Shown here piece after piece: positions 1-44,996 of a DNA stretch of 44,996 nt (positions are counted from its first letter, which is position 1; every line of letters begins with the position of its first letter). The translations under genes and the position numbers were made by a program. The notes below the pieces were generated by a model that was not told where the DNA came from, did no database searches, and saw only the letters and a list, made by a program, of their open reading frames with translations. Source of the stretch: a phage; the sequence record PZ789432.1. One strand, given 5' to 3'.

Positions 1-257
1 GCCCTCGCCGGGTTGCCCCCATATGGGGTAGATCGGCGGTTGACCTAGGAATTGGGCTGGGCTGGTCCGTCTTCGACGGGTGGGCGAGGGCTTGCCGAGG
101 TCTGCTCTTAGTGGCTGCACAAGGAGAACGCCTAGGAAGCGCTAGGGCACGCCTTAGTATTGGACAAGGTGATTGCCTTAGTGAAGCCTCTTAGTGCATT
201 CCTTAGGTCATTCAGGGCGTTTATGAGGGATTGACAGGGTGGATGCGTGTGTGGGCT
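1..257. repeat. left direct terminal repeat of the linear phage genome
   Basis: 1..257 recurs in the same orientation at 44742..44996. Contains the perfect palindrome CCCCATATGGGG at 17..28. The two copies differ by one substitution and a 2-nt indel at the inner edge (ggatgcgtgtgtgggct vs ggatgggtgtgggct). Confidence 0.85.
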
Positions 258-264
258 ATCTGTT
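258..264 (+). terminator. ATCTGTT motif, T7-type class II RNA polymerase pause/termination signal (concatemer-junction-like)
   Basis: Exact ATCTGTT immediately after the inner edge of the left terminal repeat (gtgtgtgggct|ATCTGTTcc), the same position as the T7 CJ pause site. Confidence 0.5.
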
Positions 265-595
265 CCTTTGCTACGCTCACTCACTGGTTCGCTGCGCTGC
301 GGTCAGTCGCTGATGTGTACCTTAGGTTATTCCTTGATGGATGGCTTAGGTTAGCCTTAGTGGACTACCTTAGTTAAAGCCTTAGTGCTTCAGCTTAGTA
401 TCAGCTTAGTAGTGTACCTTAGTCAGTCTTAGTGTCTTCTCTTAGTGATTGCACATGCTAAAGCATGTAAGATGCCATTAGGTCGCGGTCGGTAGACCGC
501 TAAAGAAGGAGAATGGTAATAAGATGCAGTAGGAGGAACACCAGAAACCTAGCCAACCTAGCCTATCCTAGCTCTGTATCTATTGCTTTTCCTTA

Positions 596-611
596 GTCTA
601 ACATGTGAGAC
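596..611. repeat. near-copy (1 mismatch) of the 16-bp palindrome GTCTCACATGTGAGAC
   Basis: gtctaacatgtgagac; differs from the perfect copies at one position. Confidence 0.5.
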
Positions 612-645
612 AACCTAGATTTATCTTAGTGATGATATCTTAGTG

Positions 646-674
646 TTGACAAGGCCGTCTCAATATAATACTAT
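646..674 (+). promoter_or_regulatory. sigma70-like early promoter (TTGACA, 17 bp spacer, TACTAT)
   Basis: Perfect -35 TTGACA at 646..651; -10 TACTAT at 669..674 after a 17-bp spacer; upstream of the first early genes, as for T7 A-type promoters. Confidence 0.5.
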
Positions 675-817
675 TCATCACGTAGGCAGCACTGAGGTGC
701 TTAGTAGCCAGCTAGTAAGGCATACGAAGAGACTAGCGCTTACATTGCTCTTTAACAATTTGCTTAGTGTAACCTATGTATGCCGTGGTTAATTACTTAT
801 TGAATGAGGGATTAACT

Positions 818-997
818 ATGACATTAAACAACCGTGAACTATCCGTTCTCTTCACTCTGTTGTGCTACATGATTCGTAACAACGAATTACTTACAGACGA
901 TGAGTTAGCCTTGTATCACCGCTTTCTTAACGAAGGTTGGACCGATACAATTAATCAATACCGTAACATGATAGATGAGTTGAGGGAGGGTAAATAA
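818..997 (+). CDS. hypothetical early protein (59 aa, mildly acidic)
   Basis: ORF track 776..997; preferred start ATG 818 preceded by GAGGGA; stop overlaps the next start (TAATG). Confidence 0.6.
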   Translation: MTLNNRELSVLFTLLCYMIRNNELLTDDELALYHRFLNEGWTDTINQYRNMIDELREGK

Positions 998-1221
998 TGT
1001 ATCAGCATGAGGTTTTCTTTGAGTCAGCTAGTGAAGCTATCCGCTTCCTTGAAGATATGCTACAAGCTGGCGTAGGTGTTGATGTACATCACTTCCTACT
1101 AGATTACGACACTGAATATCACCGAGTTACCTTAGTATCTGAGTATGACAACCAAGTCATTACTGAGTACCTAGGCAGTGAAGATTACGATTACGATGAA
1201 GTAATCACGACAAATCTCTAA
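997..1221 (+). CDS. hypothetical early protein, 74 aa, strongly acidic and aromatic-rich (candidate DNA mimic / anti-defense)
   Basis: ORF track; SD GAGGGAGGG upstream; about 17 Asp/Glu against 2 Arg and no Lys, 7 Tyr; translationally coupled to the upstream ORF; immediately upstream of ocr. Confidence 0.65.
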   Translation: MYQHEVFFESASEAIRFLEDMLQAGVGVDVHHFLLDYDTEYHRVTLVSEYDNQVITEYLGSEDYDYDEVITTNL

Positions 1222-1229
1222 ATTAACTG

Positions 1230-1258
1230 TTGACAGCCACGGCATACAAGGTTACATT
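1230..1258 (+). promoter_or_regulatory. sigma70-like early promoter (TTGACA, 17 bp spacer, TACATT)
   Basis: TTGACA at 1230..1235, -10-like TACATT at 1253..1258. Confidence 0.4.
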
Positions 1259-1350
1259 AAGCATCAAGACGGCGACGTCTTTAAACATCCCGCTCTTTAA
1301 CAATATGGTTTGTGTCTTGATAGGCTAACTAACTAACTAAGGTAATTATC

Positions 1351-1461
1351 ATGAAAGGTTTAATTTGTGTAGAACGTATGGTCAATGGTAAACTTGAAAT
1401 ATTACCACTGGAAAACCAATCTAGCTTCAAAGAGTGGTATGGCTGTTTCTCACTGATTTAA
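1351..1461 (+). CDS. hypothetical small early protein (36 aa)
   Basis: ATG 1351 preceded by ctaactaactaAGGtaattatc, the same leader context as ocr; below the ORF-track size cutoff. Confidence 0.3.
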   Translation: MKGLICVERMVNGKLEILPLENQSSFKEWYGCFSLI

Positions 1462-1612
1462 GGTAAAGGCTGGCATTAGTCAGCCTATCAAGGCGCAAAC
1501 CAAGCTCTTTAACAATTTGGATGGTAGCTTCTTAGTCTGGATAGGTTAAACCTAGGGGATTCTCTTGAGTCTCCTATAATGTAACCTAACTAACTAAATG
1601 AGGATTAATAAC

Positions 1613-1966
1613 ATGGCTATGTCTAATATGACTTACTCTCAGGTTTACAACACCGCTCATGCTGCATTAGTTGAACGTATCTGGAATGATGCTATTGATT
1701 GTATTGATAACGCACATGATGCAATCCATGATGCGGCGGATAGTGCTGTACCAATCTATTATGCTGACATCTTCTCCGTGATGGCGAGTGAAGGAATTGA
1801 TCATTTCTTCGAAGACTCCGGCCTGATGCCAGACACTAAGGATGTAACCGTAGTATTGCAAGCCCGTATCTATGAGCAACTCACAATTGATCTATGGGAA
1901 CGTGTTCAGTATATGATTGTTGAATACGTCAACTCCGCCGAATATTTAGAAGAAGAAGAGGAATAA
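1613..1966 (+). CDS. ocr: Ocr-like anti-restriction protein (T7 gp0.3 homolog, DNA mimic)
   Basis: Translation MAMSNMTY...[49 protein letters not shown]...EEEEE aligns over its full length with T7 Ocr as I remember it (117 aa); SD GAGG upstream of ATG 1613. Confidence 0.9.
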
Positions 1967-1968
1967 GA

Positions 1969-2082
1969 ATGGAAAAGCTATACAACTTCATCTTTTCAGA
2001 CGGTGTAACCCTGAAGTGTTCCCTGCGTTTCGCACAAATTCGTGAGGAAGTACTAGGCACTACATACAAACTATTTAGCTGA
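1969..2082 (+). CDS. hypothetical small protein (37 aa)
   Basis: ATG 1969 with GAGG 8 nt upstream; overlaps a promoter-like sequence; weak. Confidence 0.25.
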   Translation: MEKLYNFIFSDGVTLKCSLRFAQIREEVLGTTYKLFS

Positions 2083-2098
2083 CACTATAAGAGAAGGC
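2074..2098 (+). promoter_or_regulatory. phage RNAP promoter-like sequence (variant: atttagctgacactataagagaag)
   Basis: Matches the SP6-type core GACACTATA but has A in place of the +1 G; activity uncertain. Confidence 0.35.
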
Positions 2099-2158
2099 TT
2101 AACAAGGCGTTGCTACGGTAGCGCCTGATTAAACTTTCACTTACTAGGAGTTAAGACT

Positions 2159-2386
2159 ATGGATTTAGATAGCATCATTATGGCATTTGCTCTTATTGGC
2201 TTAAGCTGGTGCTCCTATAACCTTTACCGTGAGTTCTTATTTGATAAAGCTAAACGCAAACTAAGAAAAGAAGGCGGCAATTACCTTTGTGTAAGAGGTG
2301 GGCTTGTAGAATACATTGCACCTAACGGCACGGAATGCGCCATTAGCAAAGATGCATTTATAGAAACGTGGCATTACATCAAGTAA
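2159..2386 (+). CDS. hypothetical early membrane protein (75 aa, N-terminal TM helix)
   Basis: ORF track; SD AGGAG upstream; hydrophobic N-terminus IIMAFALIGLSW. Confidence 0.6.
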   Translation: MDLDSIIMAFALIGLSWCSYNLYREFLFDKAKRKLRKEGGNYLCVRGGLVEYIAPNGTECAISKDAFIETWHYIK

Positions 2387-2449
2387 CTAGCCTATAGCCT
2401 ACCTGAGTGGGCTATGTGATATTTACTTACACTATATAAGGTGACTATT

Positions 2450-3373
2450 ATGACTACTGAAAACATCCTCCTGTCTGTCCGTGAAGCTGCAACCGCTGAG
2501 ATTAAGCAGCATTTGGATAATATCGGCACTTCTTACATCAAAGTTGGCGCTTGTCTGAATGAATTACGCGGTGATTTCGAAGGTCAAAAAGACTTTTTAG
2601 CTTATGTCGAATCAGAGTTCGGCATCAAGAAAGCACAATGCTACAAGCTGATGAGTGTAGCCCGTGTCTTTGAAGGAGACGAACGCTTTAAAGGTGTGGC
2701 TATGCGTGTAATGCTGGCGCTTGTTCCTTTCGCTGATGAAAATATGATCATGGAGAAGGCCGCAGAACTCGCCGCAGAGGGCAAGCTGGACACTAACGCC
2801 GTAAACGCCCTGATTGATCCTAAGAAAGAGACAAAGGCCGAGACGGTACAACCTAAGGTTGAGTCGGTAAAACCGCAGGAGAACGCGACTGAGGCCGCAG
2901 AAACTATGCAAGGACATGCAACCTTTGAGGATTTCATATTAGAGAAGGCGAAAGAGGAGCTACAAAGTGTGCCGCCAGCAAGTGAGTCGGATGACGACAA
3001 ATCAGCACCGTGGGAAGAGGAAAGCAAGCCGGAAGCGCCAAAGACTGCGCCACTGGACAACACGGCTAACACCGAGAGTGCCGCTATTGCTGGCCTTCTG
3101 GCACAAATTAAAGCACTGACTGAGCAATTACAGGCAGCCAATGACCGCATCGCCTCCTTAAGTAGCGCACGCGAAAGCAAGAAGGCAGCCGCGCCTATGC
3201 TGCCGCAATTCAAATCTTCCTGCTTCTATGCTCGCTTAGGTTTAAGCGCTGAGGAGGCAACGAAGAAAACAGCAGTTAACAAGGCACGCCGCGAACTGGT
3301 TAAGCTAGGCTACGGCGAAGGCCATGAAGCATGGCCCTTAATCTCTGAGGCAGTAGAAGAATTAACTAAGTAA
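2450..3373 (+). CDS. hypothetical early protein (307 aa), Ala/Glu-rich with a C-terminal coiled-coil-like region
   Basis: ORF track 2441..3373 starts at GTG; ATG at 2450 preceded by AAGGTG. Sits where T7 has gp0.7, but I see no kinase motifs. Confidence 0.7.
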   Translation: MTTENILLSVREAATAEIKQHLDNIGTSYIKVGACLNELRGDFEGQKDFLAYVESEFGIKKAQCYKLMSVARVFEGDERFKGVAMRVMLALVPFADENMIMEKAAELAAEGKLDTNAVNALIDPKKETKAETVQPKVESVKPQENATEAAETMQGHATFEDFILEKAKEELQSVPPASESDDDKSAPWEEESKPEAPKTAPLDNTANTESAAIAGLLAQIKALTEQLQAANDRIASLSSARESKKAAAPMLPQFKSSCFYARLGLSAEEATKKTAVNKARRELVKLGYGEGHEAWPLISEAVEELTK

Positions 3374-3436
3374 CCTTATCGGTGGCATCTTCTTAGGTGT
3401 CACCTATTAAGGTTTCTTTCACTAGGAGTAAACAAG

Positions 3437-6064
3437 ATGCAAGACCTACACGCTATTCAACTTCAACTTGAAGAAGAAATGTTTAACGGCGGTATCCGTC
3501 GCTTTGAAGCGGACCAACAACGCCAGATTGCATCCGGTAATGAATCAGACACGGCATGGAATCGCCGCTTATTGTCCGAGTTAATCGCGCCAATGGCTGA
3601 AGGTATTCAGGCTTATAAGGAAGAGTACGAAGGCAAGCGCGGTCGTGCACCACGTGCATTGGCTTTCATTAACTGCGTAGAAAATGAAGTGGCAGCGTAT
3701 ATCACGATGAAAATCGTAATGGATATGCTTAACACTGATGTAACCTTGCAGGCTATAGCCATGAATGTAGCTGACCGCATTGAGGACCAAGTACGTTTTA
3801 GCAAGCTGGAAGGTCACGCCGCCAAATACTTTGAGAAAGTTAAGAAGTCACTTAAGGCAAGTAAGACTAAATCATATCGCCATGCGCACAACGTAGCGGT
3901 CGTGGCTGAGAAGTCAGTAGCTGACCGTGACGCTGATTTCTCTCGCTGGGAGGCGTGGCCTAGAGATACCTTGCTACAAATTGGTATGACCTTGCTAGAA
4001 ATACTGGAAAATAGTGTATTCTTCAATGGTCAGCCTGTCTTTCTTCGCACCTTGCGCACTAATGGTGGCAAGCATGGCGTTTACTACTTACAGACTAGCG
4101 AACACGTGGGTGAATGGATAACTGCATTTAAAGAGCACGTAGCTCAGCTGAGTCCAGCCTATGCACCTTGCGTTATTCCTCCGCGTCCGTGGGTTTCTCC
4201 GTTTAATGGTGGCTTTCACACCGAGAAGGTGGCAAGTCGCATCCGTCTAGTAAAAGGTAACCGTGAGCACGTCCGTAAGCTGACTAAAAAGCAAATGCCA
4301 GCGGTTTACAAGGCTGTTAACGCCTTACAAGCTACTAAGTGGCAGGTTAACAAGGAAGTATTGCAGGTAGTAGAAGATGTTATTCGTCTAGACCTCGGTT
4401 ATGGTGTACCTTCCTTTAAGCCGCTCATTGACCGCGAGAACAAACCAGCTAACCCTGTTCCTCTTGAGTTCCAGCACCTGCGAGGCCGTGAACTTAAAGA
4501 GATGCTAACGCCGGAACAATGGCAAGCCTTTATAAACTGGAAAGGAGAATGTACCAAGCTGTATACCGCTGAAACTAAGCGCGGAAGCAAGTCGGCGGCG
4601 ACCGTTCGCATGGTTGGACAAGCCCGTAAATACAGCCAGTTTGACGCAATTTATTTTGTGTATGCACTGGACAGCCGTTCACGCGTTTATGCGCAATCTA
4701 GCACGCTCTCGCCGCAATCAAACGACTTAGGCAAGGCATTGCTCCGTTTTACCGAAGGGCAGCGTCTTGATAGCACTGAGGCGCTTAAGTGGTTTTTGGT
4801 GAACGGGGCGAATAACTGGGGTTGGGATAAGAAAACTTTTGACGTGCGCACCGCTAACGTGCTGGATAGCGAATTTCAAGACATGTGCCGCGACATTGCA
4901 GCGGATCCGCTGACCTTCACTCAATGGGTAAATGCTGATTCCCCTTATGGCTTCCTTGCATGGTGCTTTGAATATGCGCGTTATCTGGATGCACTGGACG
5001 AAGGAACGCAAGACCAATTCATGACGCACCTACCCGTCCATCAAGATGGTAGTTGCTCTGGTATCCAGCACTATAGCGCGATGTTACGAGATGAAGTAGG
5101 TGCGAAAGCAGTAAACCTTAAGCCTTCTGACTCCCCTCAAGATATTTATGGCGCGGTTGCGCAGGTTGTTATCCAGAAGAATTACGCCTACATGAATGCA
5201 GACGACGCAGTGACTTTCACATCCGGAAGCGTCACACTTACAGGTGCAGAACTGCGTAGCATGGCTAGTGCGTGGGATATGATAGGAATCACTCGCGGCC
5301 TGACCAAAAAGCCCGTAATGACACTACCTTATGGCAGCACACGTCTAACCTGCCGTGAGTCAGTGATTGATTATATCGTTGATTTAGAAGAAAAAGAGGC
5401 CCAACGAGCTATTGCGGAAGGGCGTACCGCCAATCCTGTACACCCTTTTGATAATGACCGTAAGGACAGCCTGACACCTAGCGCAGCTTATAACTATATG
5501 ACAGCTTTAATCTGGCCTTCTATTTCGGAAGTGGTTAAAGCTCCTATAGTGGCGATGAAAATGATTCGTCAGCTTGCCCGTTTCGCAGCTAAAAGGAATG
5601 AAGGCTTAGAGTATACCTTGCCTACTGGCTTCATCTTGCAACAAAAGATTATGGCTACTGATATGCTCCGCGTATCCACTTGCCTGATGGGAGAAATCAA
5701 GATGAGTCTCCAGATTGAAACGGACGTAGTGGATGAAACGGCTATGATGGGCGCTGCTGCTCCTAACTTTGTGCATGGTCATGATGCCAGTCACCTTATC
5801 TTAACGGTCTGCGACCTTGTTGATAAAGGGATTACATCTATCGCAGTAATTCATGATTCTTTTGGCACTCATGCAGGTCGCACCGCAGACCTACGTGATA
5901 GTCTAAGGGCAGAAATGGTGAAGATGTATCAAGGCCGTAACGCTCTGCAAAGCCTGTTAGATGAGCATGAAGAACGCTGGTTAGTAGACACCGGAATCCA
6001 AGTGCCAGAGCAAGGAGAGTTTGACCTTAACGAAATCTTAGTATCTGACTATTGCTTCGCATAA
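3437..6064 (+). CDS. single-subunit DNA-dependent RNA polymerase (SP6-type)
   Basis: 875 aa; N-terminus [32 protein letters not shown] and C-terminus ...[12 protein letters not shown]...[10 protein letters not shown] closely match SP6 RNAP as I remember it; T7-family motifs present ([39 protein letters not shown]). Confidence 0.97.
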
Positions 6065-6073
6065 TATTAATAG

Positions 6074-6104
6074 GCCATTCCTTAGGGAGTGGCCTTTTCT
6101 TTTA
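6074..6104 (+). terminator. intrinsic terminator after the RNAP gene
   Basis: Hairpin ggccattcc-ttag-ggagtggcc (9-bp stem, one G-U pair) followed by TTTTCTTTT. Confidence 0.6.
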
Positions 6105-6137
6105 CCTATTACCTGTAACATTTAATTAACATAACCG

Positions 6138-6153
6138 TGTCTCACACGTGAGA
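6138..6153. repeat. 16-bp palindrome GTCTCACACGTGAGAC
   Basis: 7-bp inverted arms GTCTCAC/GTGAGAC; lies just upstream of a phage promoter. Confidence 0.8.
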
Positions 6154-6156
6154 CTT

Positions 6157-6179
6157 ATTTACCGGACACTATAGGATAA
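6157..6179 (+). promoter_or_regulatory. phage RNAP promoter (atttaccggacactatagg)
   Basis: Matches the genome-wide consensus ATTTACYGGACACTATAG; predicted +1 G at 6174. Confidence 0.7.
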
Positions 6180-6320
6180 CCGTCGGAGACGGAAAGAAAG
6201 GGAAGATAAAGGATATAAAAGGAAGTAATAGGTATTAAAGGTTATATAGGTTTACCTAGGAATACCTATTACCTTCTTCCTTCCTCTTATTACTACTTAA
6301 AGGAAGGGCAGACCTAAGTT

Positions 6321-6336
6321 GTCTCACATGTGAGAC
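6321..6336. repeat. 16-bp perfect palindrome GTCTCACATGTGAGAC
   Basis: Same family as 6138..6153; just upstream of a second phage promoter. Confidence 0.8.
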
Positions 6337-6341
6337 TTCGT

Positions 6342-6364
6342 ATTTACCGGACAATATAGATAAG
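6342..6364 (+). promoter_or_regulatory. phage RNAP promoter variant (atttaccggacaatatagataag)
   Basis: One core mismatch (C to A); second of two tandem promoters upstream of the gene 1.1-like ORF, as phi1.1A/phi1.1B in T7. Confidence 0.55.
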
Positions 6365-6389
6365 ACTAACTTACTTTGGAGATTTAACC

Positions 6390-6518
6390 ATGCGTAACTT
6401 TGAGAAGATGACCCGTAAAGCTAACCGTTTTGACATGGAAGAAGGGCAGACGAAAGGCAAGAAGCTGAATAAGCCTGTCCGTGACCGTGCATCTAAACGC
6501 GCAGCATGGGAGTTCTGA
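6390..6518 (+). CDS. T7 gene 1.1-like small basic protein (42 aa)
   Basis: MRNFEKMTRKANRFDMEEGQTKGKKLNKPVRDRASKRAAWEF resembles T7 gp1.1 as I remember it; SD GGAG upstream; below ORF-track cutoff. Confidence 0.6.
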   Translation: MRNFEKMTRKANRFDMEEGQTKGKKLNKPVRDRASKRAAWEF

Positions 6519-6521
6519 GTT

Positions 6522-6740
6522 ATGGCTAAATACAGAATCAAGACCTGTTTAAATAGTCACGGGCAAGAATTCTACGTAGTGCAACGTAAAGTATTAGGCT
6601 TAATATGGCTCACTTGTATGATGCCTATTGGCTATACTGATACAGAGGCTATCTTCTGCACCGAAAGGGATGCAAAGAAGTTTATCTCTAAGCGTAGAAA
6701 AGCTGACTCTTACCAACCTAGAATTATTAAGGTGAACTAA
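6522..6740 (+). CDS. hypothetical protein (72 aa)
   Basis: ORF track; between gene 1.1-like and primase-helicase. Confidence 0.55.
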   Translation: MAKYRIKTCLNSHGQEFYVVQRKVLGLIWLTCMMPIGYTDTEAIFCTERDAKKFISKRRKADSYQPRIIKVN

Positions 6741-8728
6741 TGGCTATTATTAATAACATCCCGTGCCCTGCCTGTCAAAAGAATGGACATGATATTACTG
6801 GCAACCATCTTATGATATTTGAGGATGGCGCTGGTTACTGTAACCGTGGTCACTTCCATGATAATGGTAAGCCTTATTACCATAAGCCAGAGGGTGGTAT
6901 CGAGATAACCGAATTGCCTATTACTGGCAATATCAAATATACACCTTCTCAATTCAAAGAAATGGAGAAGGAAGGGAAGATAAGCGACCCTAAGCTACGC
7001 GCCATCGCACTTGGTGGTATGCGTATGAAAGATCGTTGGGAGGTCATGAATGAGCAAGAAAGGGCAGACCAAGAAGCAGAGTGGAAGCTTGATGTTGAAT
7101 GGTTCCTCACGCTTAAGCGTAAGAACCTTGTATCCCGTCACATTCGAGGTGACATCGCAGCAATGTACGATGTGCGCGTTGGACACGATGAAGAGGGAAG
7201 AGTCAACCGTCACTATTATCCACGATATGAAAAGGGTGTGCTTGTTGGAGCAAAATGCCGGACGTTGCCGAAGGATTTTAAGTTCGGACACCTAGGTAAA
7301 CTCTTTGGTATGCAAGACCTTTTCGGTATGAACACTTTGTCTCACGTGTTAGACAAGGGGAGACGAAAGGATTGCTTGCTTATTGTAGGCGGTGAACTTG
7401 ATGCACTAGCAGCGCAGCAGATGCTCCTTGATTCTGCCAAGGGTACTAAGTGGGAAGGCCAGCCATACCATGTATGGTCTGTCAACAAAGGCGAGTCTTG
7501 TCTTGAAGAGATAGTGCAAAACCGTGAGCATATCGCCCAATTCAAGAAGATTATATGGGGTTTTGATGGAGATGAGGTAGGGCAGAAGCAGAATCAGCAA
7601 GCGGCTCGCCTGTTTCCTGGCAAATCCTATATCCTTGAATACCCCTCTGGTTGCAAAGATGCTAACAAGGCATTGATGGCTGGCAAGGCTAAAGAGTTTG
7701 TAGATGCATGGTTTAATGCCAAGTCATCTGATGAAGTCTTTGGTAGCCAGATTAAATCTATCGCATCTCAAAGGGATAAGCTCAAGGCTGCACGTCCAGA
7801 GCAAGGACTATCATGGCCTTGGCCTAAGCTGAACAAGGTCACGCTAGGTATTCGTAAGAACCAACTTATCATTGTAGGCGCAGGCTCTGGTGTAGGTAAG
7901 ACTGAGTTCCTTCGTGAAGTAGTTAAGCACCTCATTGAAGAACACGGTGAATCTGTAGGCATCATTTCTACAGAAGACCCGATGGTCAAGGTGTCCCGTG
8001 CTTTTATCGGCAAGTGGATTGATAAGCGCATTGAGTTACCGCCAACCAACGACCCGAAAGAAGATGGATACCGTGAGGTGTTCGACTACACCGAGGAAGA
8101 GGCTAACGCCGCCATTGATTATGTAGCTGATACAGGTAAGCTGTTTGTAGCTGACCTAGAGGGTGACTATTCGATGGAAAAGGTAGAGCAAACTTGCCTA
8201 GAGTTTGAGGCTATGGGCATTTCTAATATCATCATTGATAACTTAACGGGGATTAAATTAGATGAGCGTGCTTTTGGTGGGAAGGTTGGTGCACTTGATG
8301 AATGCGTCAAGCGGATTGGTACTATCAAAGACCGACACCCGGTTACTATATTCCTTGTATCACACCTTACACGTCCTCCGGCAAACCGTACCCAACACGA
8401 AGAAGGTGGCGAGGTTATCCTTTCTGACTTCCGAGGCTCAGGCGCTATCGGATTCTGGGCATCTTACGCCTTGGGGATTGAGCGTAATACAAGAGCTGAA
8501 ACGCTTGACGAAAGGACTACCACGTACATCTCATGTGTCAAAGACCGCGACCAAGGAATATTTTCCGGTACTCGTATAATGCTTAAAGGTGATATTGCTA
8601 CTGGTCGATTACGTGAACCAGAGCAAAGATCTCGACCGTTTGATACTGGTGCTCCAAAAGAACAAACTGTACCAGAAGAAGTAGTGGATAAAGGAGGATT
8701 TATTGCTGACGAAGTTGAAGAGTTTTGA
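6740..8728 (+). CDS. DNA primase/helicase (T7 gp4-like)
   Basis: 662 aa; N-terminal zinc ribbon CPACQ...CNRGH; Walker A VGAGSGVGKTEF; acidic C-terminus ending EEF. Confidence 0.93.
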   Translation: MAIINNIPCPACQKNGHDITGNHLMIFEDGAGYCNRGHFHDNGKPYYHKPEGGIEITELPITGNIKYTPSQFKEMEKEGKISDPKLRAIALGGMRMKDRWEVMNEQERADQEAEWKLDVEWFLTLKRKNLVSRHIRGDIAAMYDVRVGHDEEGRVNRHYYPRYEKGVLVGAKCRTLPKDFKFGHLGKLFGMQDLFGMNTLSHVLDKGRRKDCLLIVGGELDALAAQQMLLDSAKGTKWEGQPYHVWSVNKGESCLEEIVQNREHIAQFKKIIWGFDGDEVGQKQNQQAARLFPGKSYILEYPSGCKDANKALMAGKAKEFVDAWFNAKSSDEVFGSQIKSIASQRDKLKAARPEQGLSWPWPKLNKVTLGIRKNQLIIVGAGSGVGKTEFLREVVKHLIEEHGESVGIISTEDPMVKVSRAFIGKWIDKRIELPPTNDPKEDGYREVFDYTEEEANAAIDYVADTGKLFVADLEGDYSMEKVEQTCLEFEAMGISNIIIDNLTGIKLDERAFGGKVGALDECVKRIGTIKDRHPVTIFLVSHLTRPPANRTQHEEGGEVILSDFRGSGAIGFWASYALGIERNTRAETLDERTTTYISCVKDRDQGIFSGTRIMLKGDIATGRLREPEQRSRPFDTGAPKEQTVPEEVVDKGGFIADEVEEF

Positions 8729-9191
8729 GGCAGCAGGATATACCATCAAGGAGGATGGTACTATCCTTAACCCTAAAGGTGTAATACTTAAACCGAGCCA
8801 ATCAGGAAGGAAATTAAAGTATTTATATGTAAGTTGGAGACATCAAGGAAGAAGAGTAACAGAGCTTGTACACAGATTGGTTGCTAAGAAGTACATACCC
8901 AACCCACACAGTTTACCAGAAATTCATCATAAAGACTTTAACCCTCTTAATTGTCATAAAGACAATCTTGAATGGACAGATGGTAAGACTAATTGTGAGT
9001 ATAGTTATGCAAGGGTAGAAGCTGCACTTGCACGTCATGCTACTTTATTGTCACCTGATGGCATTAAGTACGACATATTTAATGTTCGTAAATTCTGCCG
9101 CGAACATGGCCTCAATCCACCTAGTGTATTTGAGGTGCTTAGTGGTAAACGGAAGTCACATAAAGGGTGGACTATTTACCGGACACTATAG
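8703..9191 (+). CDS. HNH homing endonuclease
   Basis: 162 aa; EIHHKDFNPLNCHKDNLEW HNH motif. No in-frame ATG; starts at TTG 8703 six nt after AAGGAGG, inside the last 26 nt of the helicase gene. Confidence 0.8.
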   Translation: MLTKLKSFEAAGYTIKEDGTILNPKGVILKPSQSGRKLKYLYVSWRHQGRRVTELVHRLVAKKYIPNPHSLPEIHHKDFNPLNCHKDNLEWTDGKTNCEYSYARVEAALARHATLLSPDGIKYDIFNVRKFCREHGLNPPSVFEVLSGKRKSHKGWTIYRTL

Positions 9192-10703: not shown

Positions 10704-10908
10704 ATTAAGCAAGGTTTGCTCTTGCGGTAAAGGCTATCGCAGTCGTATTGATGGTAAGTGTGGACATTGTAGGTCTAAGAAAGAGGCTGCTTTGTTTTAC
10801 AAATACCACAATGAACTCTCCTATAACTACCCTCATCTAACACCTAATTCTTTATTAGGACTTGGTTATAGGGCTAAATACTTTGGAGCAATCTATGAAA
10901 TCAATTGA
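10690..10908 (+). CDS. hypothetical zinc-ribbon protein (72 aa)
   Basis: ORF track 10663..10908; ATG 10690 preferred (GAGG 6 nt upstream); CSCGKG...CGHC motif. Confidence 0.5.
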   Translation: MKTIKLSKVCSCGKGYRSRIDGKCGHCRSKKEAALFYKYHNELSYNYPHLTPNSLLGLGYRAKYFGAIYEIN

Positions 10909-11380
10909 TTGGAAGAAGGAAGCGGAAGGGCGCATCCTAGTTATGGACGCCGAGGCGAAAGGTCTACTTGATGCTATACGCTATGGTCATCGTGAAGACG
11001 TGCATATCATCTGCTGTATGGACCTGTTGACTACAGAGGAGTTTCTCTTCTTCGACCCGTATGAGATGCGTGACCCTGAAGCAAGAGAACGCCTGAAGGA
11101 ATGGGAAGGTCATCAAGATGGTGACTTGGTTGATGGTGTTAACTTCCTGAAGCATTGTGAAGCTATTGTGTCACAGAACTTCCTAGGGTATGACGGACTT
11201 CTCTTTGAGAAAGCATTCCCTGATATTTGGAAGGGCTTTAACTATACCGAGAAGCGCGGTAAGGGCAGACTCCGTGCTGACCTGTGTCCGGTGCGAGTCA
11301 TGGATACGCTGGTGATGAGTCGCCTGTTAAACCCAGATAAGACGCCTTCCTCCGCAAGCATATGCCAAAGGTATGGGTAA
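10895..11380 (+). CDS. DNA polymerase (Pol I family), fragment 1 of 4: 3'-5' exonuclease domain; frame-disrupted
   Basis: ORF track 10862..11380 (TTG), first ATG 10895; Exo motifs ILVMDAEAKGL and NFLGYDGLLFEKAF; VMDTLVMSRLL parallels T7 gp5 CIDTLVLSRLI. Homology continues in another frame. Confidence 0.85.
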   Translation: MKSIDWKKEAEGRILVMDAEAKGLLDAIRYGHREDVHIICCMDLLTTEEFLFFDPYEMRDPEARERLKEWEGHQDGDLVDGVNFLKHCEAIVSQNFLGYDGLLFEKAFPDIWKGFNYTEKRGKGRLRADLCPVRVMDTLVMSRLLNPDKTPSSASICQRYG

Positions 11381-11786
11381 CGTCGCCCCTCACTCAATTG
11401 AGGCGCACGGCATCCGTATAGGCCGCTATAAACCGGAGAACGAGGACTGGTCTAAACTAACTGACCACATGGTTCACCGTGTACGTGAGGACGTGGCGAT
11501 TGGTCGTGACTTGTTCCTCTGGCTCTTTAACGGGGAATGGATGGAGCATAAACGCCGTGGCGTGAATAAACGCACGGGCCTAGGCATTGAGACAGCCTTC
11601 CACATGGAGTCCATTGTGGCGCTGGAGATGAGCCGTCAGGCCGAGCGGGGGTTCCGTCTGGACATCGACAAGGCTTTGGCCCGATGCGAAGAATTGGACG
11701 CTAAGATTGATGAGACAGTCGCAGCGTTCCGCCCTCACATGCCTATGCGTATCAAGTCTAAACCTTTTAAACCGGAAGAAAAGTAA
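11373..11786 (+). CDS. DNA polymerase, fragment 2 of 4; frame-disrupted
   Basis: HSIEAHGIRIGRYK parallels T7 gp5 HALEAWGYRLGEMK; the frame is open upstream from 11331, so the shift lies near 11335..11372. Confidence 0.8.
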   Translation: MGNVAPHSIEAHGIRIGRYKPENEDWSKLTDHMVHRVREDVAIGRDLFLWLFNGEWMEHKRRGVNKRTGLGIETAFHMESIVALEMSRQAERGFRLDIDKALARCEELDAKIDETVAAFRPHMPMRIKSKPFKPEEK

Positions 11787-12445
11787 TGAAGTATGCCAAC
11801 GCGCAAATGAGTATGGAGCTAGCAACAATATACCTACTGTCCTTGACCCCTCACACTTTCTTCATGCCGAGAGACGAGGAGATCGCAAGACAGTATGGAG
11901 AGCTTGTCACTACTAAGTCTGGTGATTGGTCGGCTAGTGTTAAGAAAGACTTTCCTCACCTTAGAGGAAACCGTAATGACACGCCAAGCATCAAGTGGAT
12001 TGGCGCTTACTCGCCTGTTACTTTCGAAGAGATTCCCTTGGGTAACAGGGATACAGTTAAGCAAGTGCTCTATGATTATGGATGGAAAGGTGTTGAATTT
12101 AACGATACCGAGCAAGCGCATCTCGATGAGTACGGAGTGTTACCCAAACCTTGGAGTGGTAAGATAAATGAAAAGTCCCTCACTTTATGGCAAGAAAGAG
12201 CCGCACGTGAAGGTAAAACAGTACCTGATTGGTGCTTGGGTATCGCTGCATGGTACATACTCGTATCCCGTCGTGGTCAGATACTCAACCGTGGTGACGT
12301 TGAAGCCTTCAACGAGAAGGGGAACGTGGCCCTCGCAGGCTGGTGTACGAAAGTGTCGCGGCCTTGTACCTGTAGCATTCAACAAGGAGCTAGGAATCAA
12401 TGCGCAGCAATACTACGAGAGGTACGGATGTTGGCCTACGTCTGA
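11786..12445 (+). CDS. DNA polymerase, fragment 3 of 4; frame-disrupted
   Basis: Back in the frame of fragment 1; polymerase-like over its N-terminal two thirds. Confidence 0.7.
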   Translation: MKYANAQMSMELATIYLLSLTPHTFFMPRDEEIARQYGELVTTKSGDWSASVKKDFPHLRGNRNDTPSIKWIGAYSPVTFEEIPLGNRDTVKQVLYDYGWKGVEFNDTEQAHLDEYGVLPKPWSGKINEKSLTLWQERAAREGKTVPDWCLGIAAWYILVSRRGQILNRGDVEAFNEKGNVALAGWCTKVSRPCTCSIQQGARNQCAAILREVRMLAYV

Positions 12446-13448
12446 CAAAGATGACGGAGAGTGGCGTGTTCCAGCTGTTGCTATTAGTATTGGCACTTCT
12501 ACGTTCCGTATGCGTCATCGTAACGTGGTTAATATTCCTGCCCGTGGCTTGTATCCTTTACGTGATTTATTCATAGCAGGGAAAGGCAAGCTAATCCTTG
12601 GTTGTGACGGTGCAGGTCTTGAACTGCGTGTCCTGTCTCACTTCATGAATGACCCTGAGTACCAAGAGATTGTACTGCACGGTGATATTCATACGCATAA
12701 CCAGATGAAGGCTGGTCTTCCTAAGCGTGATATGGCGAAGACGTTTATATACGCCTTCCTCTATGGTTCTGGTATAGCCAACCTTGCAGCAGTCTGCGGT
12801 GTTACTGAGGAAGAAATGAAGGAAGTTGTGGCAAGATTCGAGATTGAACTACCGTCTCTTGCACGTCTTCGTGAGAATGTTATCGCACAAGGTAACAAGT
12901 TTGGCTACCTGCAAGCACCTGATGGGCATTGGGGTCGCATCCGCATGTCTGGTGGTGAACTTAAAGAGCACACGATGCTTAACGTATTACTCCAGATGAC
13001 TGGCTCTTTGTGTATGAAATATGCATTAGTCAAGGCATTTGCAGTAATGCGCAAGGAAGGTGTAGCTTTGGATGCTATGGGAAATCCTTGTGGTGTGGCT
13101 AACGTGCATGATGAAATCCAGATGGAAGTTCCTGAAGAGGAGGTCTTGTATCTTAACTACGACCTACCTTTCACCTTAGATGGGTTCGAAACAGAGAAGG
13201 CTGCTGTGAAAGCAGTTTTCGATGCAGAGGAGAAACGTGTTCATGTGGATTCTGAAGGACGTATGTGGTCTGCTGCAAACCTCGTTAGCGTTGATGCTGA
13301 TGCTGGTGTATTGCATTGCCAGCGCCGTTATCACCGTGCAGGTCATATCATTGCCGACGCCATGACTTGGGCAGGGCAGTATCTGAAGATGCGTTGCCCG
13401 ATGGCAGGAGAATATAAGATTGGCGCAAGCTGGAAGGAAACACACTGA
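12168..13448 (+). CDS. DNA polymerase, fragment 4 of 4: palm/fingers; frame-disrupted
   Basis: Motif A GCDGAGLELRVLSHF, TSTFRMRHRNVVNIP (T7 TGRATHAFPNLAQIP), KTFIYAFLYG, VHDEIQ. Reliable homology starts near 12430; the first ~260 nt of this ORF overlap fragment 3. Confidence 0.85.
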   Translation: MKSPSLYGKKEPHVKVKQYLIGAWVSLHGTYSYPVVVRYSTVVTLKPSTRRGTWPSQAGVRKCRGLVPVAFNKELGINAQQYYERYGCWPTSDKDDGEWRVPAVAISIGTSTFRMRHRNVVNIPARGLYPLRDLFIAGKGKLILGCDGAGLELRVLSHFMNDPEYQEIVLHGDIHTHNQMKAGLPKRDMAKTFIYAFLYGSGIANLAAVCGVTEEEMKEVVARFEIELPSLARLRENVIAQGNKFGYLQAPDGHWGRIRMSGGELKEHTMLNVLLQMTGSLCMKYALVKAFAVMRKEGVALDAMGNPCGVANVHDEIQMEVPEEEVLYLNYDLPFTLDGFETEKAAVKAVFDAEEKRVHVDSEGRMWSAANLVSVDADAGVLHCQRRYHRAGHIIADAMTWAGQYLKMRCPMAGEYKIGASWKETH

Positions 13449-16469: not shown

Positions 16470-17026
16470 TAGATGCTGACATGTTACCCTACATCGTAGG
16501 TTATACAATCAGTGACATGACTTATGTACGAGCCACAACTCGTGTTAAGTCAGGACAAGTCCCATCAATCAAAGATACACCTGAGTGTAAGCAAGCGTGT
16601 GACCGTGTGAACTCCTTGCTCAACTCTTGGGTGTATGCAGCAGAGTGTGATGCAGCTAAGTTATTCATGACGAAATCAGAAGCTAACTTCCGTGTTCGCC
16701 TAGCCTTCACCAAGCCTTACAAGGGTCAACGTAAGACCGAGAAGCCTCCGTTCTTCTATGAATTGCGAGAGCATCTCTTAGAGGTTCATGGTGCAATCTT
16801 GGCAGATGGAGAAGAGGCTGATGACCTCATGAGCATTGCACAATGGGACAGCCACCGCCGCTTCCAGCAAGCTACAGGTAACGAGTTCCCTATCGGTAGT
16901 CCAGAGCATAAAGCATTCTCTGATACTTGCATCGTTTCCTTAGATAAGGATTTGATGATTGTTCCCGGTTGGCATCTTCAGCCGGGTCAAGAGAAGAAAT
17001 GGGTTAGAGCCTATGGGTTGGCTTGA
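16382..17026 (+). CDS. 5'-3' exonuclease (T7 gp6-like), fragment 1 of 2; frame-disrupted
   Basis: ORF track 16316..17026 (non-ATG); ATG 16382 after GAGGAG; IALIDADMLPY, EEADDLMSIAQ and IVSLDKDLMIVPGW parallel T7 gp6. Confidence 0.85.
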   Translation: MRPNFDFGATVSEDNNLLLWPTEGNRIALIDADMLPYIVGYTISDMTYVRATTRVKSGQVPSIKDTPECKQACDRVNSLLNSWVYAAECDAAKLFMTKSEANFRVRLAFTKPYKGQRKTEKPPFFYELREHLLEVHGAILADGEEADDLMSIAQWDSHRRFQQATGNEFPIGSPEHKAFSDTCIVSLDKDLMIVPGWHLQPGQEKKWVRAYGLA

Positions 17027-18823: not shown

Positions 18824-18906
18824 AGGGCTAGGTAAGACTTTATCGGCTGGCGTATCCAAATGATATTGCACTAGCCCTTGATTGTATAGTGAATGGAGGA
18901 TTCAAT

Positions 18907-19410
18907 ATGTCACACTATGAATGTAAGAAGTGTCATAAGCGTTATGATTACTGTACTTGTGGTCAAGAGAAAACATCTTTTAAAGTTGGAGACAAGGTAT
19001 TTCGTAATGAAAAAGATTCGATCCCTTGGAATCAATACTGCAAAGAAGCTGGTATTGACCCTGATAGCCCTGTAACCATAGATGATATTGATGGCATTAA
19101 CTTGTGCTTTCGTGAGGTGAGGGGTACAGGTTGGGATTCCAAAAAATTCAAACTTGCATCTGATAAGTTAGACAACAATATGGTAACTCAGCCTAAGCAC
19201 TACGAGTTCTTTGATGGCGTAGAAGCAATTACTATCATCGCCCGTAGTATGACTGAGAAGCAATTCGCGGGGTATTGCATGGGTAATGCTTTGAAGTATC
19301 GTCTGCGTGCAGGTAAGAAGTTCAATACTGAAGAAGACCTGAAGAAAGCAGACTACTACAAAGAGTTATTCCAGAAGCATCGTCACGAATGTATTGATGA
19401 GGATATTTAA
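18907..19410 (+). CDS. hypothetical protein: N-terminal Cys4 zinc ribbon plus DUF3310-like C-terminal domain
   Basis: ORF track 18889..19410 (GTG); ATG 18907 after GGAGG; YECKKCHKRYDYCTCG; C-terminal HYEFFDGVEAI...GNALKYRLRAGKK...EDLKKADYY resembles DUF3310 as I remember it. Confidence 0.65.
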   Translation: MSHYECKKCHKRYDYCTCGQEKTSFKVGDKVFRNEKDSIPWNQYCKEAGIDPDSPVTIDDIDGINLCFREVRGTGWDSKKFKLASDKLDNNMVTQPKHYEFFDGVEAITIIARSMTEKQFAGYCMGNALKYRLRAGKKFNTEEDLKKADYYKELFQKHRHECIDEDI

Positions 19411-39628: not shown

Positions 39629-39985
39629 TGCTTAACAAATACTTCAAGCGCCGTGAGTTCGCTTGCCGTTGTGGGTGCGGTACATCCACTGTTGATGCTG
39701 AATTACTACAGGTAGTCACAGATGTGCGTGAGCACTTTGGTTCGTACCTGTAGTAATCACTTCGGGGCATCGCTGTGCTAAGCACAATGCCAACGTAGGA
39801 GGAGCTAAGAAGGTTCCATGCATCTTACTGGTAAGGCTGCTGACATTAAGGTATCTAGGTGTCTGGTACCAATCGGAGGTACGTACAGTACCTCTGCTAA
39901 TAAATACCCTGATAAGTATGGCATTGGTGCTTATACCTACTTTTACCCATATCGACGTTACGAGACAACGAGTGCACGATGGTAA
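39628..39985 (+). pseudogene. endolysin, zinc peptidase M15-type, with about four frame disruptions in this sequence
   Basis: Successive frames give MLNKYFKRREFACRCGCG...VREHFGS / PVVITSGHRCAKHNANVGGAKK / SMHLTGKAADIKV...GIGAYTY / FTHIDV / ...SARW*, together the M15 hallmark. Each break is at a short G or T run. Confidence 0.75.
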
Positions 39986-42652: not shown

Positions 42653-44365
42653 ATGCTTCAAAGATTAAGTGCTTACTTGGTGAAGTACAAGAGTAAACTA
42701 ACAGGTACTATTGAGCGCCTGCTATCTGATAAACTATCGGATACAATAGACGTTGCGGATTTTGGAGTTAATCCCTCTTCTAATGACAACAGGCAAGCCC
42801 TTCAAGCTGCATTCAATGCGGTCAGATTGCTAGGCGGTGGTACTGTATCAGTCACTAAAGCTGGCGAATATAAACTCAGTGGTACTGTTGAGATATTTGC
42901 TAATACACACTTCAAGGTTGCTAAAGGTGTAACATTTGTACGTGACTACGAAACAGGAGATACGCTATTCAGATTATCACAAGGGCAAGCTAGTAATGTA
43001 ACAGTCAGTGGAGGTATCTATGAAGGCAATGGTCACACTAAGGGAGATACACCTTTTGTAGTATTTGCATCTACTAGTAATAATGATTTGAAGTTTGAAG
43101 GCATAACAGTTAACAATGTAGTGGACTACCACGCCATAGATTTAGCAGATTGGAACAACGTAGTTATTCGTGATTGTAAATTCCTAGGGTTTAAGAATAC
43201 AGGCAGTCGTAACTTCTCAGAGGCTATACAGTTAGACCCAGGTCTTATTACAGTTGGTCACTATGTACAGTCAAGCGGTATGCTGGTGGAGAATTGCTAT
43301 GCTGGTCCAAACCCAGAATCAGGGTTTGGGGGTTATGGTGCACTAATCGGAAATCACGCCTCAGCTTATGGTGTACAGGACAACAATATCCGTATCTTGA
43401 ATTGCACTACAGATGGTGCTCTCTTTGCAGGTGTACGTGTATTTAACTGGAAAAACTGGACAGTACGTGGTTGTACCTTTAGAAACTCTAATGCAAGAGG
43501 TGTTCATGTTACACCTGTCTCCTCTCAAACTAAACCGCAAGGAACTCGACAAGGTAGTGTTGTAGATTGTACTTTTGATGGCGTAAGAACACCAGTGCTA
43601 ATTGCTGCACCATCTTGGCCTTTTACAGATATTAGTGACATTTGGCATGACCATATTGAAATTTCTAATAATACTATGATCCTCACAGAGGATGTATCCT
43701 ATGGTGTAGATGCAAGGTGGTGTAAGAATTTAATTGTAAAAGGTAACACTGGTTCTGGCGGCTTAGGGTTAATCGGTTTACGCTTTGGAACAAAGTACCA
43801 CATCGAAGGTAATACTTGGGAAAACGGAAGAGGTAGTGGGATTTGGTTAGGTGAGTCTGATGCTACTACATTCATTGGTACTGGCTTATCTGGAGAAGGT
43901 ATACTTAGTCGTAATATCCTCTCTAAATTAGGGCAATATGGTATTCATGTAAACTGCAAGGCTGGCGGTCTAGTGATTAAAGCTAATAATATGAAGGAAG
44001 TATCTACAGCTGAAGCAGGTAGGCACTTCATTAGCATAGACACAGGAGCTAACAACATCCTAGTAGAAGGTAATATTGGAGTAGATGGAGAAAGCCCTAA
44101 CAAGCCAAGCTTGGGTATTCGTGTTACTTCTTCTTGTTCCAATATTAAACTCATTGGCAATGATTGCTATGGTACACAGGCGCCTCAGAATAACCAAGGG
44201 GTTGGTTCTAGTACGGTGATTGTTTATGGACTAAATGGCAATCCTACAACTTTAGGCGTAGGTGCACCTGTTGGCTCTTTAGCAACTGATATCAATGGGT
44301 CTGGTGGTAGTACATTGTACGTTAAAGAATCTGGTACATCTGCTCAAGGTTGGGTTGCAAAGTAG
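42653..44365 (+). CDS. tailspike 2 (pectate-lyase-fold beta-helix depolymerase)
   Basis: 570 aa; SD AAGGAGG; N-terminal DVADFGVNPSSNDNRQALQAAFNA...GGGTV typical of pectate-lyase-type tailspikes, followed by beta-helix-like repeats. Confidence 0.85.
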   Translation: MLQRLSAYLVKYKSKLTGTIERLLSDKLSDTIDVADFGVNPSSNDNRQALQAAFNAVRLLGGGTVSVTKAGEYKLSGTVEIFANTHFKVAKGVTFVRDYETGDTLFRLSQGQASNVTVSGGIYEGNGHTKGDTPFVVFASTSNNDLKFEGITVNNVVDYHAIDLADWNNVVIRDCKFLGFKNTGSRNFSEAIQLDPGLITVGHYVQSSGMLVENCYAGPNPESGFGGYGALIGNHASAYGVQDNNIRILNCTTDGALFAGVRVFNWKNWTVRGCTFRNSNARGVHVTPVSSQTKPQGTRQGSVVDCTFDGVRTPVLIAAPSWPFTDISDIWHDHIEISNNTMILTEDVSYGVDARWCKNLIVKGNTGSGGLGLIGLRFGTKYHIEGNTWENGRGSGIWLGESDATTFIGTGLSGEGILSRNILSKLGQYGIHVNCKAGGLVIKANNMKEVSTAEAGRHFISIDTGANNILVEGNIGVDGESPNKPSLGIRVTSSCSNIKLIGNDCYGTQAPQNNQGVGSSTVIVYGLNGNPTTLGVGAPVGSLATDINGSGGSTLYVKESGTSAQGWVAK

Positions 44366-44741: not shown

Positions 44742-44996
44742 GCCCTCGCCGGGTTGCCCCCATATGGGGTAGATCGGCGGTTGACCTAGGAATTGGGCTG
44801 GGCTGGTCCGTCTTCGACGGGTGGGCGAGGGCTTGCCGAGGTCTGCTCTTAGTGGCTGCACAAGGAGAACGCCTAGGAAGCGCTAGGGCACGCCTTAGTA
44901 TTGGACAAGGTGATTGCCTTAGTGAAGCCTCTTAGTGCATTCCTTAGGTCATTCAGGGCGTTTATGAGGGATTGACAGGGTGGATGGGTGTGGGCT
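44742..44996. repeat. right direct terminal repeat
   Basis: Same orientation copy of 1..257; preceded by extra ctcgccctcgccctcgcc units that the truncated left copy does not show. Confidence 0.85.

Follow-up and report, generated by a model that had tools for sequence, protein, structure and literature searches.

The presence of ocr and gene 1.1 in SP6-like phages is already known: homologs of both have been annotated in phages like SP6, K1-5 and K1E for about two decades, are found in dozens of Vectrevirus records, and carry RefSeq labels such as 'ocr-like anti-restriction' and 'other names: gp1.1' in SP6-like genomes. The Ocr protein of T7 (gp0.3) has 34 acidic residues, of which, as mutagenesis indicates, far fewer are needed (PMC3439906). 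SP6 Gp5 (NP_853565) is a working Ocr that inhibits Salmonella BREX (PMC11341690) and, according to Scholl (2004) as cited in PMC4837284, has been proposed as the cause of SP6 growth regardless of type I systems. Ocr is also able to trigger PARIS (PMC9122126, PMC11464382). We analyzed the ocr and gene 1.1 homologs of PZ789432.1, a complete linear phage genome of 44,996 bases (hereafter the window, by which we mean the whole stretch of DNA analyzed), for which a preliminary description had proposed that T7-type early genes between positions 1613 and 6518 may form a horizontally exchanged cassette in an SP6-type backbone. Our results make it very probable that ocr is a swappable single-gene module, represented here by a T7-class allele, and that gene 1.1 was mostly inherited with the backbone; this is the explanation that we favor.

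The window Ocr matched the Pfam family PF08684 ('DNA mimic ocr') at 142.2 bits, the cut-off being 25 (residues 3-99 aligned to positions 1-97 of the 101 in the profile), PHROG 2568 (E=2.8e-46) and, as sequence homology, the solved T7 Ocr 1S7Z_A (E=8.3e-41, residues 1-117 on 1-117). At the protein level it is 64-66% identical to T7 Ocr (66% over the full length) and 61% identical to that of SP6. Like T7 Ocr, it is an acidic protein of 117 amino acids (aa) that starts with MAMSNMTY and ends in a poly-Glu tail, and it is encoded by the first substantial gene of the left end, the leftmost early position upstream of the RNA polymerase (RNAP, from 3437), as is also the case in SP6 and K1-5. Unlike T7 Ocr, it has 24 rather than 34 acidic residues (24 D/E and 4 K/R with a pI of about 4, compared with 34 D/E and 6 K/R), its DNA is 66-71% identical (70.7% over 291 nucleotides (nt), 66% over the whole open reading frame (ORF)), its neighbors gene 4, gene 5 and gp6 are without T7 counterparts, and the window is without the 0.4-0.7 genes. 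SP6 Gp5 is likewise a T7-class Ocr at the same position with a gene 4 homolog next to it, but it shares only 61% identity with the window protein at 85% RNAP identity and is nearer to T7 Ocr (77-78%). The gp3 proteins of K1-5 and K1E occupy the same slot between flanks that are 98-100% identical to those of the window, yet they belong to a different class, the K1-5 class, and are 83-86% identical to Ocr of K1F and EcoDS1, which are T7-like phages (Kayfunavirus). The closest systems include those of the Escherichia phages 6948, EEc4 and AAPEc6 (Vectrevirus), whose window-type ocr is already annotated as 'protein Ocr' and whose DNA is 92-99.9% identical over the ocr region and 94-96% identical over 1-8556; unlike the window, these phages are without frameshifting insertions in the DNA polymerase (DNAP) gene. 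By analogy with T7 and SP6, an Ocr dimer would mimic bent DNA and thereby block type I restriction-modification (R-M) enzymes and the BREX protein PglX, and, as for T7 Ocr and SP6 Gp5, host promoters would drive its synthesis ahead of other proteins, with the block in place by the time the remaining genome becomes exposed.

The genome around this gene is that of a Vectrevirus (K1-5/K1E-like, Molineuxvirinae, SP6 supergroup), as seen in its genome-wide similarity and synteny with K1-5 and K1E, its SP6-type promoters and its direct terminal repeats. Most window proteins are 85-100% identical to those of K1-5/K1E, with the same gene order, and 37-97% identical to those of SP6, while DNA identity over 1-8556 is 92-96% to many deposited Vectrevirus genomes (including those of Escherichia phages 6948, EEc4, AAPEc6, K1E and K1-5). 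RNAP is 99% identical to K1-5/K1E, 85% to SP6 and 31% to T7, and the corresponding values for the primase/helicase are 94-95%, 90% and 25%. Core proteins with a T7 homolog share 25-37% identity with it (DNAP 34%, portal 31%, tail tube 27-31%, TerL 37%). The SP6-type promoter pattern gave 16 matches on both strands (13 on the plus strand) compared with 0.43 expected, and about a dozen of the plus-strand matches read TTAC(T/C)GGACACTATAGAAG or a close variant. These protein identities, nucleotide identities and promoters bear out the SP6/K1-5-like backbone of the preliminary description; its further observation that ocr and the gene 1.1 homolog closely resemble T7 proteins also held, given the matches to PF08684 and 1S7Z with 64-66% identity for Ocr and the match to PF08200 with 59% identity for gp1.1, compared with the 25-37% of the core.

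Comparison with K1-5 delimited a replacement bounded by the ocr ORF. The window and K1-5 are 98-100% identical as far as about position 1600; their identity is then mostly 52-70% within 1601-1950 (22% over the final 50 nt of this interval) and 88-100% from 1951 onward (82-100% when K1-5 and K1E are both considered). The left breakpoint lies in the ribosome-binding site (about 1603-1612), where the window equals K1-5 through ...TAAATGAGGATTA and diverges after it, and the right breakpoint lies in the GAA/GAG run of the poly-Glu tail and the stop codon (about 1950-1968). Ocr of K1-5 and K1E starts with MERNANAYY, unlike the MAMSNMTY of the window, although the RNAPs are 99% identical; the two proteins share 45% identity in an alignment of 64 loci, 51% in a synonymous-site comparison and 58% over a 77-aa local match. 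At silent sites the proportion of differences (pS) between the window and K1-5 is 0.80 for ocr, which is saturated, compared with a synonymous divergence (dS) of 0.41 for RNAP at 99% aa identity. We also observed a T7-like locus from IMG/VR (3300045988_000519, about 6440-7590; L063) whose RNAP is 99% identical to that of T7, yet which carries a K1-5-class ocr (52% aa identity to that of T7); its divergent block runs from the ocr start codon through the gene 0.4-0.6 region to the start of gene 0.7. The ocr differences in both comparisons, window with K1-5 and L063 with T7, can only be allele replacements, because selection acting on a protein is unable to drive silent sites to saturation next to unchanged flanks. 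Such an exchange would come about by recombination between co-infecting phages at short conserved sequences at both ends of the ORF, with one crossover falling within the conserved ribosome-binding site and the other within the poly-Glu tail and stop codon. On this mechanism ocr would be a single-ORF module swapped across genera, and across the Studiervirinae/Molineuxvirinae boundary, in enterobacterial Autographiviridae.

The phylogeny of Ocr is discordant with that of the backbone. In a neighbor-joining tree of 64 non-redundant loci with ocr and a complete RNAP, taken from IMG/VR and reference genomes, the T7 class (MAMSNMTY) and the K1-5 class (MERNANAYY) were split in 200 of 200 bootstraps, whereas a split between Molineuxvirinae and Studiervirinae appeared in none of the 200. 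Vectrevirus loci, as defined by RNAP, comprised six of the T7 class and six of the K1-5 class; Zindervirus-level loci comprised four of each, and Teseptimavirus loci comprised 13 of the T7 class and one of the K1-5 class, with all K1F-like and KP32-like phages of the tree carrying the K1-5 class. K1-5 Ocr is as close to Ocr of CLB_P1 as to those of K1F and EcoDS1 (83-86% identity in all). A Klebsiella SP6-like locus (L082), with an RNAP 69% identical to that of the window, has an Ocr nested in the Klebsiella KP32-like clade; compared with the Przondovirus locus L086, its ocr has 91% aa identity and a dS of 0.85, with 34% aa identity and a dS above 2.4 for RNAP. For a Zindervirus-level locus (L093) and a Vectrevirus locus (L017) the dS is 0.38 for ocr and 1.89 for RNAP, and for SP6 and T7 the ocr genes have 78% aa identity and a dS of 1.1, with RNAP saturated. 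These three pairs record transfers younger than the lineage splits.

The window allele itself represents an old sub-lineage of the T7 class that resides in Vectrevirus, and is no recent import from T7. Because silent sites are saturated in the comparison with T7 (pS 0.79 for ocr, with RNAP saturated as well), the allele reads as old and the direction of its movement is unreadable. Window-type Ocr at 80% identity or more was found in about 46 phage records, and K1-5-type Ocr at 85% or more in at least 29 genomes of 43.7-46 kb; together the two types cover essentially all Vectrevirus records, although these counts come from separate searches and were not cross-tabulated record by record. Over 1450-2160 the window is 99.9% identical to phage 6948. 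Among 5.8 billion proteins searched, no outside donor of this allele came to light: matches of at least 83% identity with a long contig were all on contigs of 43.6-46.8 kb, which is Vectrevirus size, and the next identity was at most 74%. A third T7-class allele was found at 3417-3764 of a Vectrevirus-type contig (Logan SRR25644130; L094) with an RNAP 96% identical to that of the window; its Ocr shares 68-70% identity with each of the window, T7 and SP6 alleles (69% with that of the window and 70% with that of T7) and is thus about equally distant from all three.

Although ocr precedes RNAP in SP6, K1-5, K1E and UAB_Phi78, it is not universal in Molineuxvirinae: Tuodvirus phD2B and Eracentumvirus Era103 have a T3-type SAMase in this slot, and Klebsiella phage VLCpiA2b has neither ocr nor SAMase there. 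The T3-type SAMase (T3, Era103, phD2B) is an alternative anti-restriction occupant of the slot before RNAP in both subfamilies and is a protein unrelated to Ocr. Its identity across subfamilies (29-31% between T3 and Era103/phD2B) is at the level of the backbone, RNAP being 30-31% identical between the same phages, unlike that of Ocr. This control shows that proteins of the slot are not inherently slow to evolve, which strengthens the horizontal reading for Ocr. We located the SAMase at 2159-2590 in the Era103 locus, at 1720-2136 in the phD2B locus (L023) and at 1117-1542 in the Aeromonas phage HJG locus (L025, L023 and L027 in our collection, respectively); the carriers are SP6-like phages of Erwinia and Lelliottia plus a Colwellvirinae phage, and the RefSeq label is 'SAM-dependent methyltransferase'. 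As its divergence matches that of the backbone, SAMase may have held the slot earlier than ocr.

Gene 1.1 showed a different pattern. Its 42-aa product (13 K/R, pI 10.7) matched PF08200 ('Bacteriophage 1.1 protein') with 58.8 bits (cut-off 21; residues 1-41 covering all 40 profile positions). Like T7 gp1.1 it is a basic protein of 42 aa with the motif MRNFEKMT...KG.KLNK..RDR..KR.W, encoded directly after RNAP and behind a phage promoter; unlike T7, where gene 1.2 (dGTPase inhibitor) comes next, the window has gene 8.5 and then the primase. A homolog stands just before the primase/helicase in SP6, K1-5, K1E and UAB_Phi78. Identity to the window protein is 95-98% for K1-5/K1E, 74% for SP6 and 59% for T7, and it declines in step with the backbone, from 90-100% within Vectrevirus through 68-78% for Zindervirus and Klebsiella relatives and 63% for Proteus relatives to 40-47% for phD2B; at the nucleotide level the gene is near-identical to that of K1-5/K1E and far from that of T7. 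Phage records with gp1.1 at 90% identity or more numbered 77, compared with 76 records whose RNAP is at least 95% identical to that of the window, and comparison with sister SP6-group genomes revealed no recombination breakpoints around gene 1.1. Taken together, these results indicate that gene 1.1 was mostly inherited with the backbone within the SP6 group, where it is essentially universal and, as a small, basic and conserved gene, takes the first position driven by a phage promoter after RNAP. Two forms of the protein were recognized: a short form (...KRDR..KR..WE) in T7, SP6 and the window, and a long form (57-59 aa; ...KRGGG.KG... plus 15-20 residues) in phD2B (6390-6560 of L023) and in K1F-like and KP32-like phages (L067, L087, L091), the long proteins of the latter two groups sharing 91% identity, compared with 60% for RNAP. 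The distribution hints that forms of gene 1.1 cross subfamily lines.

Purely vertical descent of ocr and gene 1.1 from a common T7/SP6 ancestor, with strong purifying selection preserving the likeness to T7, is the alternative that survives best, and we consider it improbable. Both genes are syntenic in the two subfamilies, gp1.1 identity steps down with the backbone in the SP6 group, and the silent sites between the window and T7 ocr are saturated, as an old split would leave them. Yet genomes with 97-99% identical RNAPs carry Ocr proteins that are about 45-50% identical, with breakpoints bounded by the ORF; the Ocr tree recovers the subfamily split in 0 of 200 bootstraps; several pairs from different subfamilies have an ocr dS far below that of RNAP; and the divergence of SAMase, which occupies this slot in other phages, keeps pace with that of the backbone. 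Nor is the gp1.1 family intrinsically slow, as gp1.1 of T7 and T3 share 40% identity at 82% RNAP identity. For gene 1.1 alone, and within the SP6 group, vertical descent is plausible.

Several points weigh against the explanation of a swappable ocr and a backbone-inherited gene 1.1. Because synonymous sites of the window ocr are saturated against T7, SP6 and K1-5 alike, the age and direction of its acquisition are unreadable, and the gene could conceivably be a very old, vertically inherited T7-class allele of Vectrevirus. The loci were retrieved from IMG/VR through ocr or RNAP patterns and are no unbiased census, and the neighbor-joining trees used about 115 columns, with bootstrapping of the class split only. 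For gene 1.1, the 59% identity between T7 and the window exceeds that between T7 and T3 (40%, RNAP 82%), between T7 and K1F-like/KP32-like phages (41-44%) and between the window and phD2B (40%), and SP6 and UAB_Phi78 share only 66% gp1.1 identity at 98% RNAP identity; with 42 residues, this deep discordance is only suggestive and weak either way. Finally, the window Ocr has ten or so fewer acidic residues than T7 Ocr, and its full activity is an assumption.

Rapid in-place evolution of Vectrevirus ocr alleles under an arms race, with no recombination, is very improbable in our view. Selection of this kind is plausible, since Ocr is sensed by PARIS and inhibits R-M and BREX, and the window allele has about 10 acidic residues fewer than that of T7; however, a pS of 0.80 between the window and K1-5 ocr stands beside flanks that are 98-100% identical and an RNAP dS of 0.41, and between the K1-5-class allele and its counterpart in K1F-like phages, which belong to the other subfamily, identity reaches 83-86%.

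That positions 1613-6518 were imported fairly recently as one cassette from a T7/T3-like phage is barely credible. Ocr and gp1.1 are indeed 59-66% identical to their T7 counterparts against 25-37% for the core, but the T7-like similarity does not extend across the region, as gp4, gp5 and gp6 gave no match to T7 proteins, RNAP is 31% identical to that of T7, and the intervening gp6 and RNAP are of SP6 type. The nucleotide comparison with T7 and T3 also failed to support a cassette: ocr DNA is 66-71% identical to T7 (70.7% over 291 nt) with saturated synonymous sites (pS 0.79), the 0.3 position of T3 holds SAMase rather than ocr, gene 1.1 DNA is near-identical to that of K1-5/K1E, and the flanks of ocr are 98-100% K1-5-like. 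Both genes are found at corresponding positions in SP6, K1-5 and K1E, and since a terminator-like hairpin (6072-6095) and a promoter-like site (6159-6177) lie between RNAP and gene 1.1, ocr and gene 1.1 belong to different transcription units. The exchange proposed in the preliminary description thus stands for the ocr ORF and falls for the region as one block, breakpoints relative to sister SP6-group genomes being present at the ends of the ocr ORF only and absent around gene 1.1. That description had also reasoned that ocr and gp1.1 homologs universal and co-phylogenetic in the SP6 group would speak against it; this is what we found for gp1.1, which tracks the backbone within the SP6 group, so that a cassette origin of gene 1.1 is refuted, and not for ocr, which is discordant in both Vectrevirus and Zindervirus and in its failure to recover the subfamilies. 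Horizontal exchange is supported for the ocr ORF alone, because ocr is not co-phylogenetic with the backbone and its swap is bounded by the ORF.

An assembly chimera or contamination as the source of the T7-like ocr, for which the ten or more frameshifting indels in essential window genes (DNAP, exonuclease, scaffold) might be cited, is negligible, as the same allele occurs in the same context in about 46 independent phage records (with 99.9% identity over 1450-2160 in phage 6948) and on metagenome contigs of 43-47 kb, and the early region is without frameshifts.

The features of the early region are listed in Table 1. A longer ORF from position 1598 merely includes the GAGGA site, and we take the ATG at 1613 as the start of ocr. 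A scan for sigma-70-like sites in the region gave 9 sites compared with 10.1 expected, and because this number is no higher than chance the early promoters are only candidates. For gene 5, K1-5 gave no match, and nucleotide identity to K1-5 over 2151-2400 is 36-58%. The hairpin after RNAP likely ends early transcription, and the promoter-like site at 6159-6177 is the positional counterpart of T7 phi1.1A/B in the T7 annotation. No homolog of T7 gp1.2 or of Era103 SAMase was found in the window, and gene 8.5 is not a gp1.2 homolog. Genes 5 and 8.5 are both of K1E type, making the left end a patchwork of small ORF-sized modules beyond ocr, and a region of about 100 nt with indels in gp6 (2901-3000) is unlike both K1-5 and K1E.

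Table 1. Features of the early region, with positions numbered from the first base of the window.
Feature	Position	Strand	Remarks
Left direct terminal repeat	1-251	+	Right copy at 44742-44992; the two 251-nt copies are 100% identical
Sigma-70-like site TTGACA-17-TACTAT	646-674	+	Candidate early host-RNAP promoter upstream of ocr; 10/12 consensus matches
Sigma-70-like site TTGACA-17-TACATT	1230-1258	+	Candidate early promoter; 10/12 matches
Shine-Dalgarno GAGGA (1601-1605) plus spacer	1601-1612	+	Left boundary of ocr allele swap
ocr, T7-class (MAMSNMTY) allele, 117 aa	1613-1966	+	PF08684 and 1S7Z matches; DNA-mimic anti-restriction by homology
Poly-Glu tail (GAA/GAG run) and stop codon	1950-1968	+	Right boundary of allele swap
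Gene 4, 37 aa, backbone gene	1969-2082	+	PHROG 11746; likewise after ocr in K1-5, K1E and SP6
SP6-type phage promoter-like site TTAGCTGACACTATAAGAG	2075-2093	+	One mismatch to pattern
Gene 5, 75 aa, K1E-type allele	2159-2386	+	97% to K1E
gp6, 310 aa, SP6-group-specific early gene	2441-3373	+	PHROG 4571; 86-88% to K1-5/K1E, 63% to SP6
Single-subunit RNA polymerase, SP6/K1-5 type	3437-6064	+	99% to K1-5/K1E
Terminator-like hairpin with T-tract just 3' of RNAP	6072-6105 (hairpin 6072-6095)	+	10-bp stem with 6 G-C pairs, then TTTCTTTT
SP6-type phage promoter-like site TTACCGGACACTATAGGAT	6159-6177	+	Two mismatches; upstream of gene 1.1
Gene 1.1 homolog, 42 aa, basic	6390-6518	+	PF08200
Gene 8.5, 72 aa	6522-6740	+	93% to K1E; in K1E, not in K1-5 or SP6
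Primase/helicase, backbone gene closing the region	6740-8728	+	94-95% to K1-5/K1E

Outside the early region, the DNAP gene (10895-13448) runs in five successive frame segments, as it carries four insertions that K1-5/K1E do not have: one base at about 11339, one at about 11784 that produces a TAA, four ('AGCT') at about 11901, and one at about 12323. These 7 bases are missing from the nearest relatives, at 98% identity, and the insertions are likely sequencing or assembly errors, with deliberate or real inactivation as the less likely alternative. Further frameshifts relative to K1-5 were found at about 17004-17017, about 23710, about 35643, 39744-39809 and about 41770, and the other genes affected are those for the exonuclease, scaffold, tail adaptor gp37, endolysin (two shifts) and the K5-lyase-type tailspike gp46; in all, with DNAP included, about 10 indels fall in essential genes and none in 1-9000. 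An ORF for a 162-aa HNH/I-HmuI-like homing endonuclease (8703-9191; PHROG 59, E=5e-30) overlaps the end of the primase/helicase gene and is not at this position in K1-5, K1E or SP6, and megablast matches to relatives end near 8556. Of the two tailspikes, the first shares 97-98% identity with K1-5 gp46 (K5 lyase), and the second (42653-44365, 570 aa) is 34% identical to the K1-5/K1E endosialidase over the N-terminal 100-114 residues only; the phage probably targets K5 and a capsule or O-antigen other than K1. A gp1.7-like nucleotide kinase (18889-19410) is also mosaic (98% to K1-5, 59% to K1E, 63% to SP6), and in the C-terminal DUF3310 domain it shares 64% identity with T7 gp1.7, making this a third gene above the T7 background.

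The two-class pattern of Ocr exemplifies the familiar mosaicism among early and anti-defense genes of phages and is not specific to the window. In the searchable literature we found no explicit statement of a two-class Ocr pattern or exchange across subfamilies, although one may still be published. One tentative reading, which we regard as possible though doubtful, is that the Ocr classes and their sub-lineages (T7; K1-5/K1F/KP32; the window-type and L094-type variants) are functionally distinct alleles kept as a cross-subfamily polymorphism by frequency-dependent selection. The selecting defenses would be type I R-M and BREX, which Ocr blocks, or PARIS-like sensors, which it triggers, and ORF-precise swapping at the ribosome-binding site and the poly-Glu tail would move the alleles; the short and long forms of gp1.1 may cross subfamilies in parallel. 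By itself this window is of little importance, but the wider pattern of single-gene ocr exchange between T7-like and SP6-like phages that share hosts is useful context. For phage-therapy engineering, the choice of ocr allele may alter host range on strains with R-M, BREX or PARIS, and for the evolution of anti-defense genes the locus offers a clear worked example of exchange at the level of single modules.

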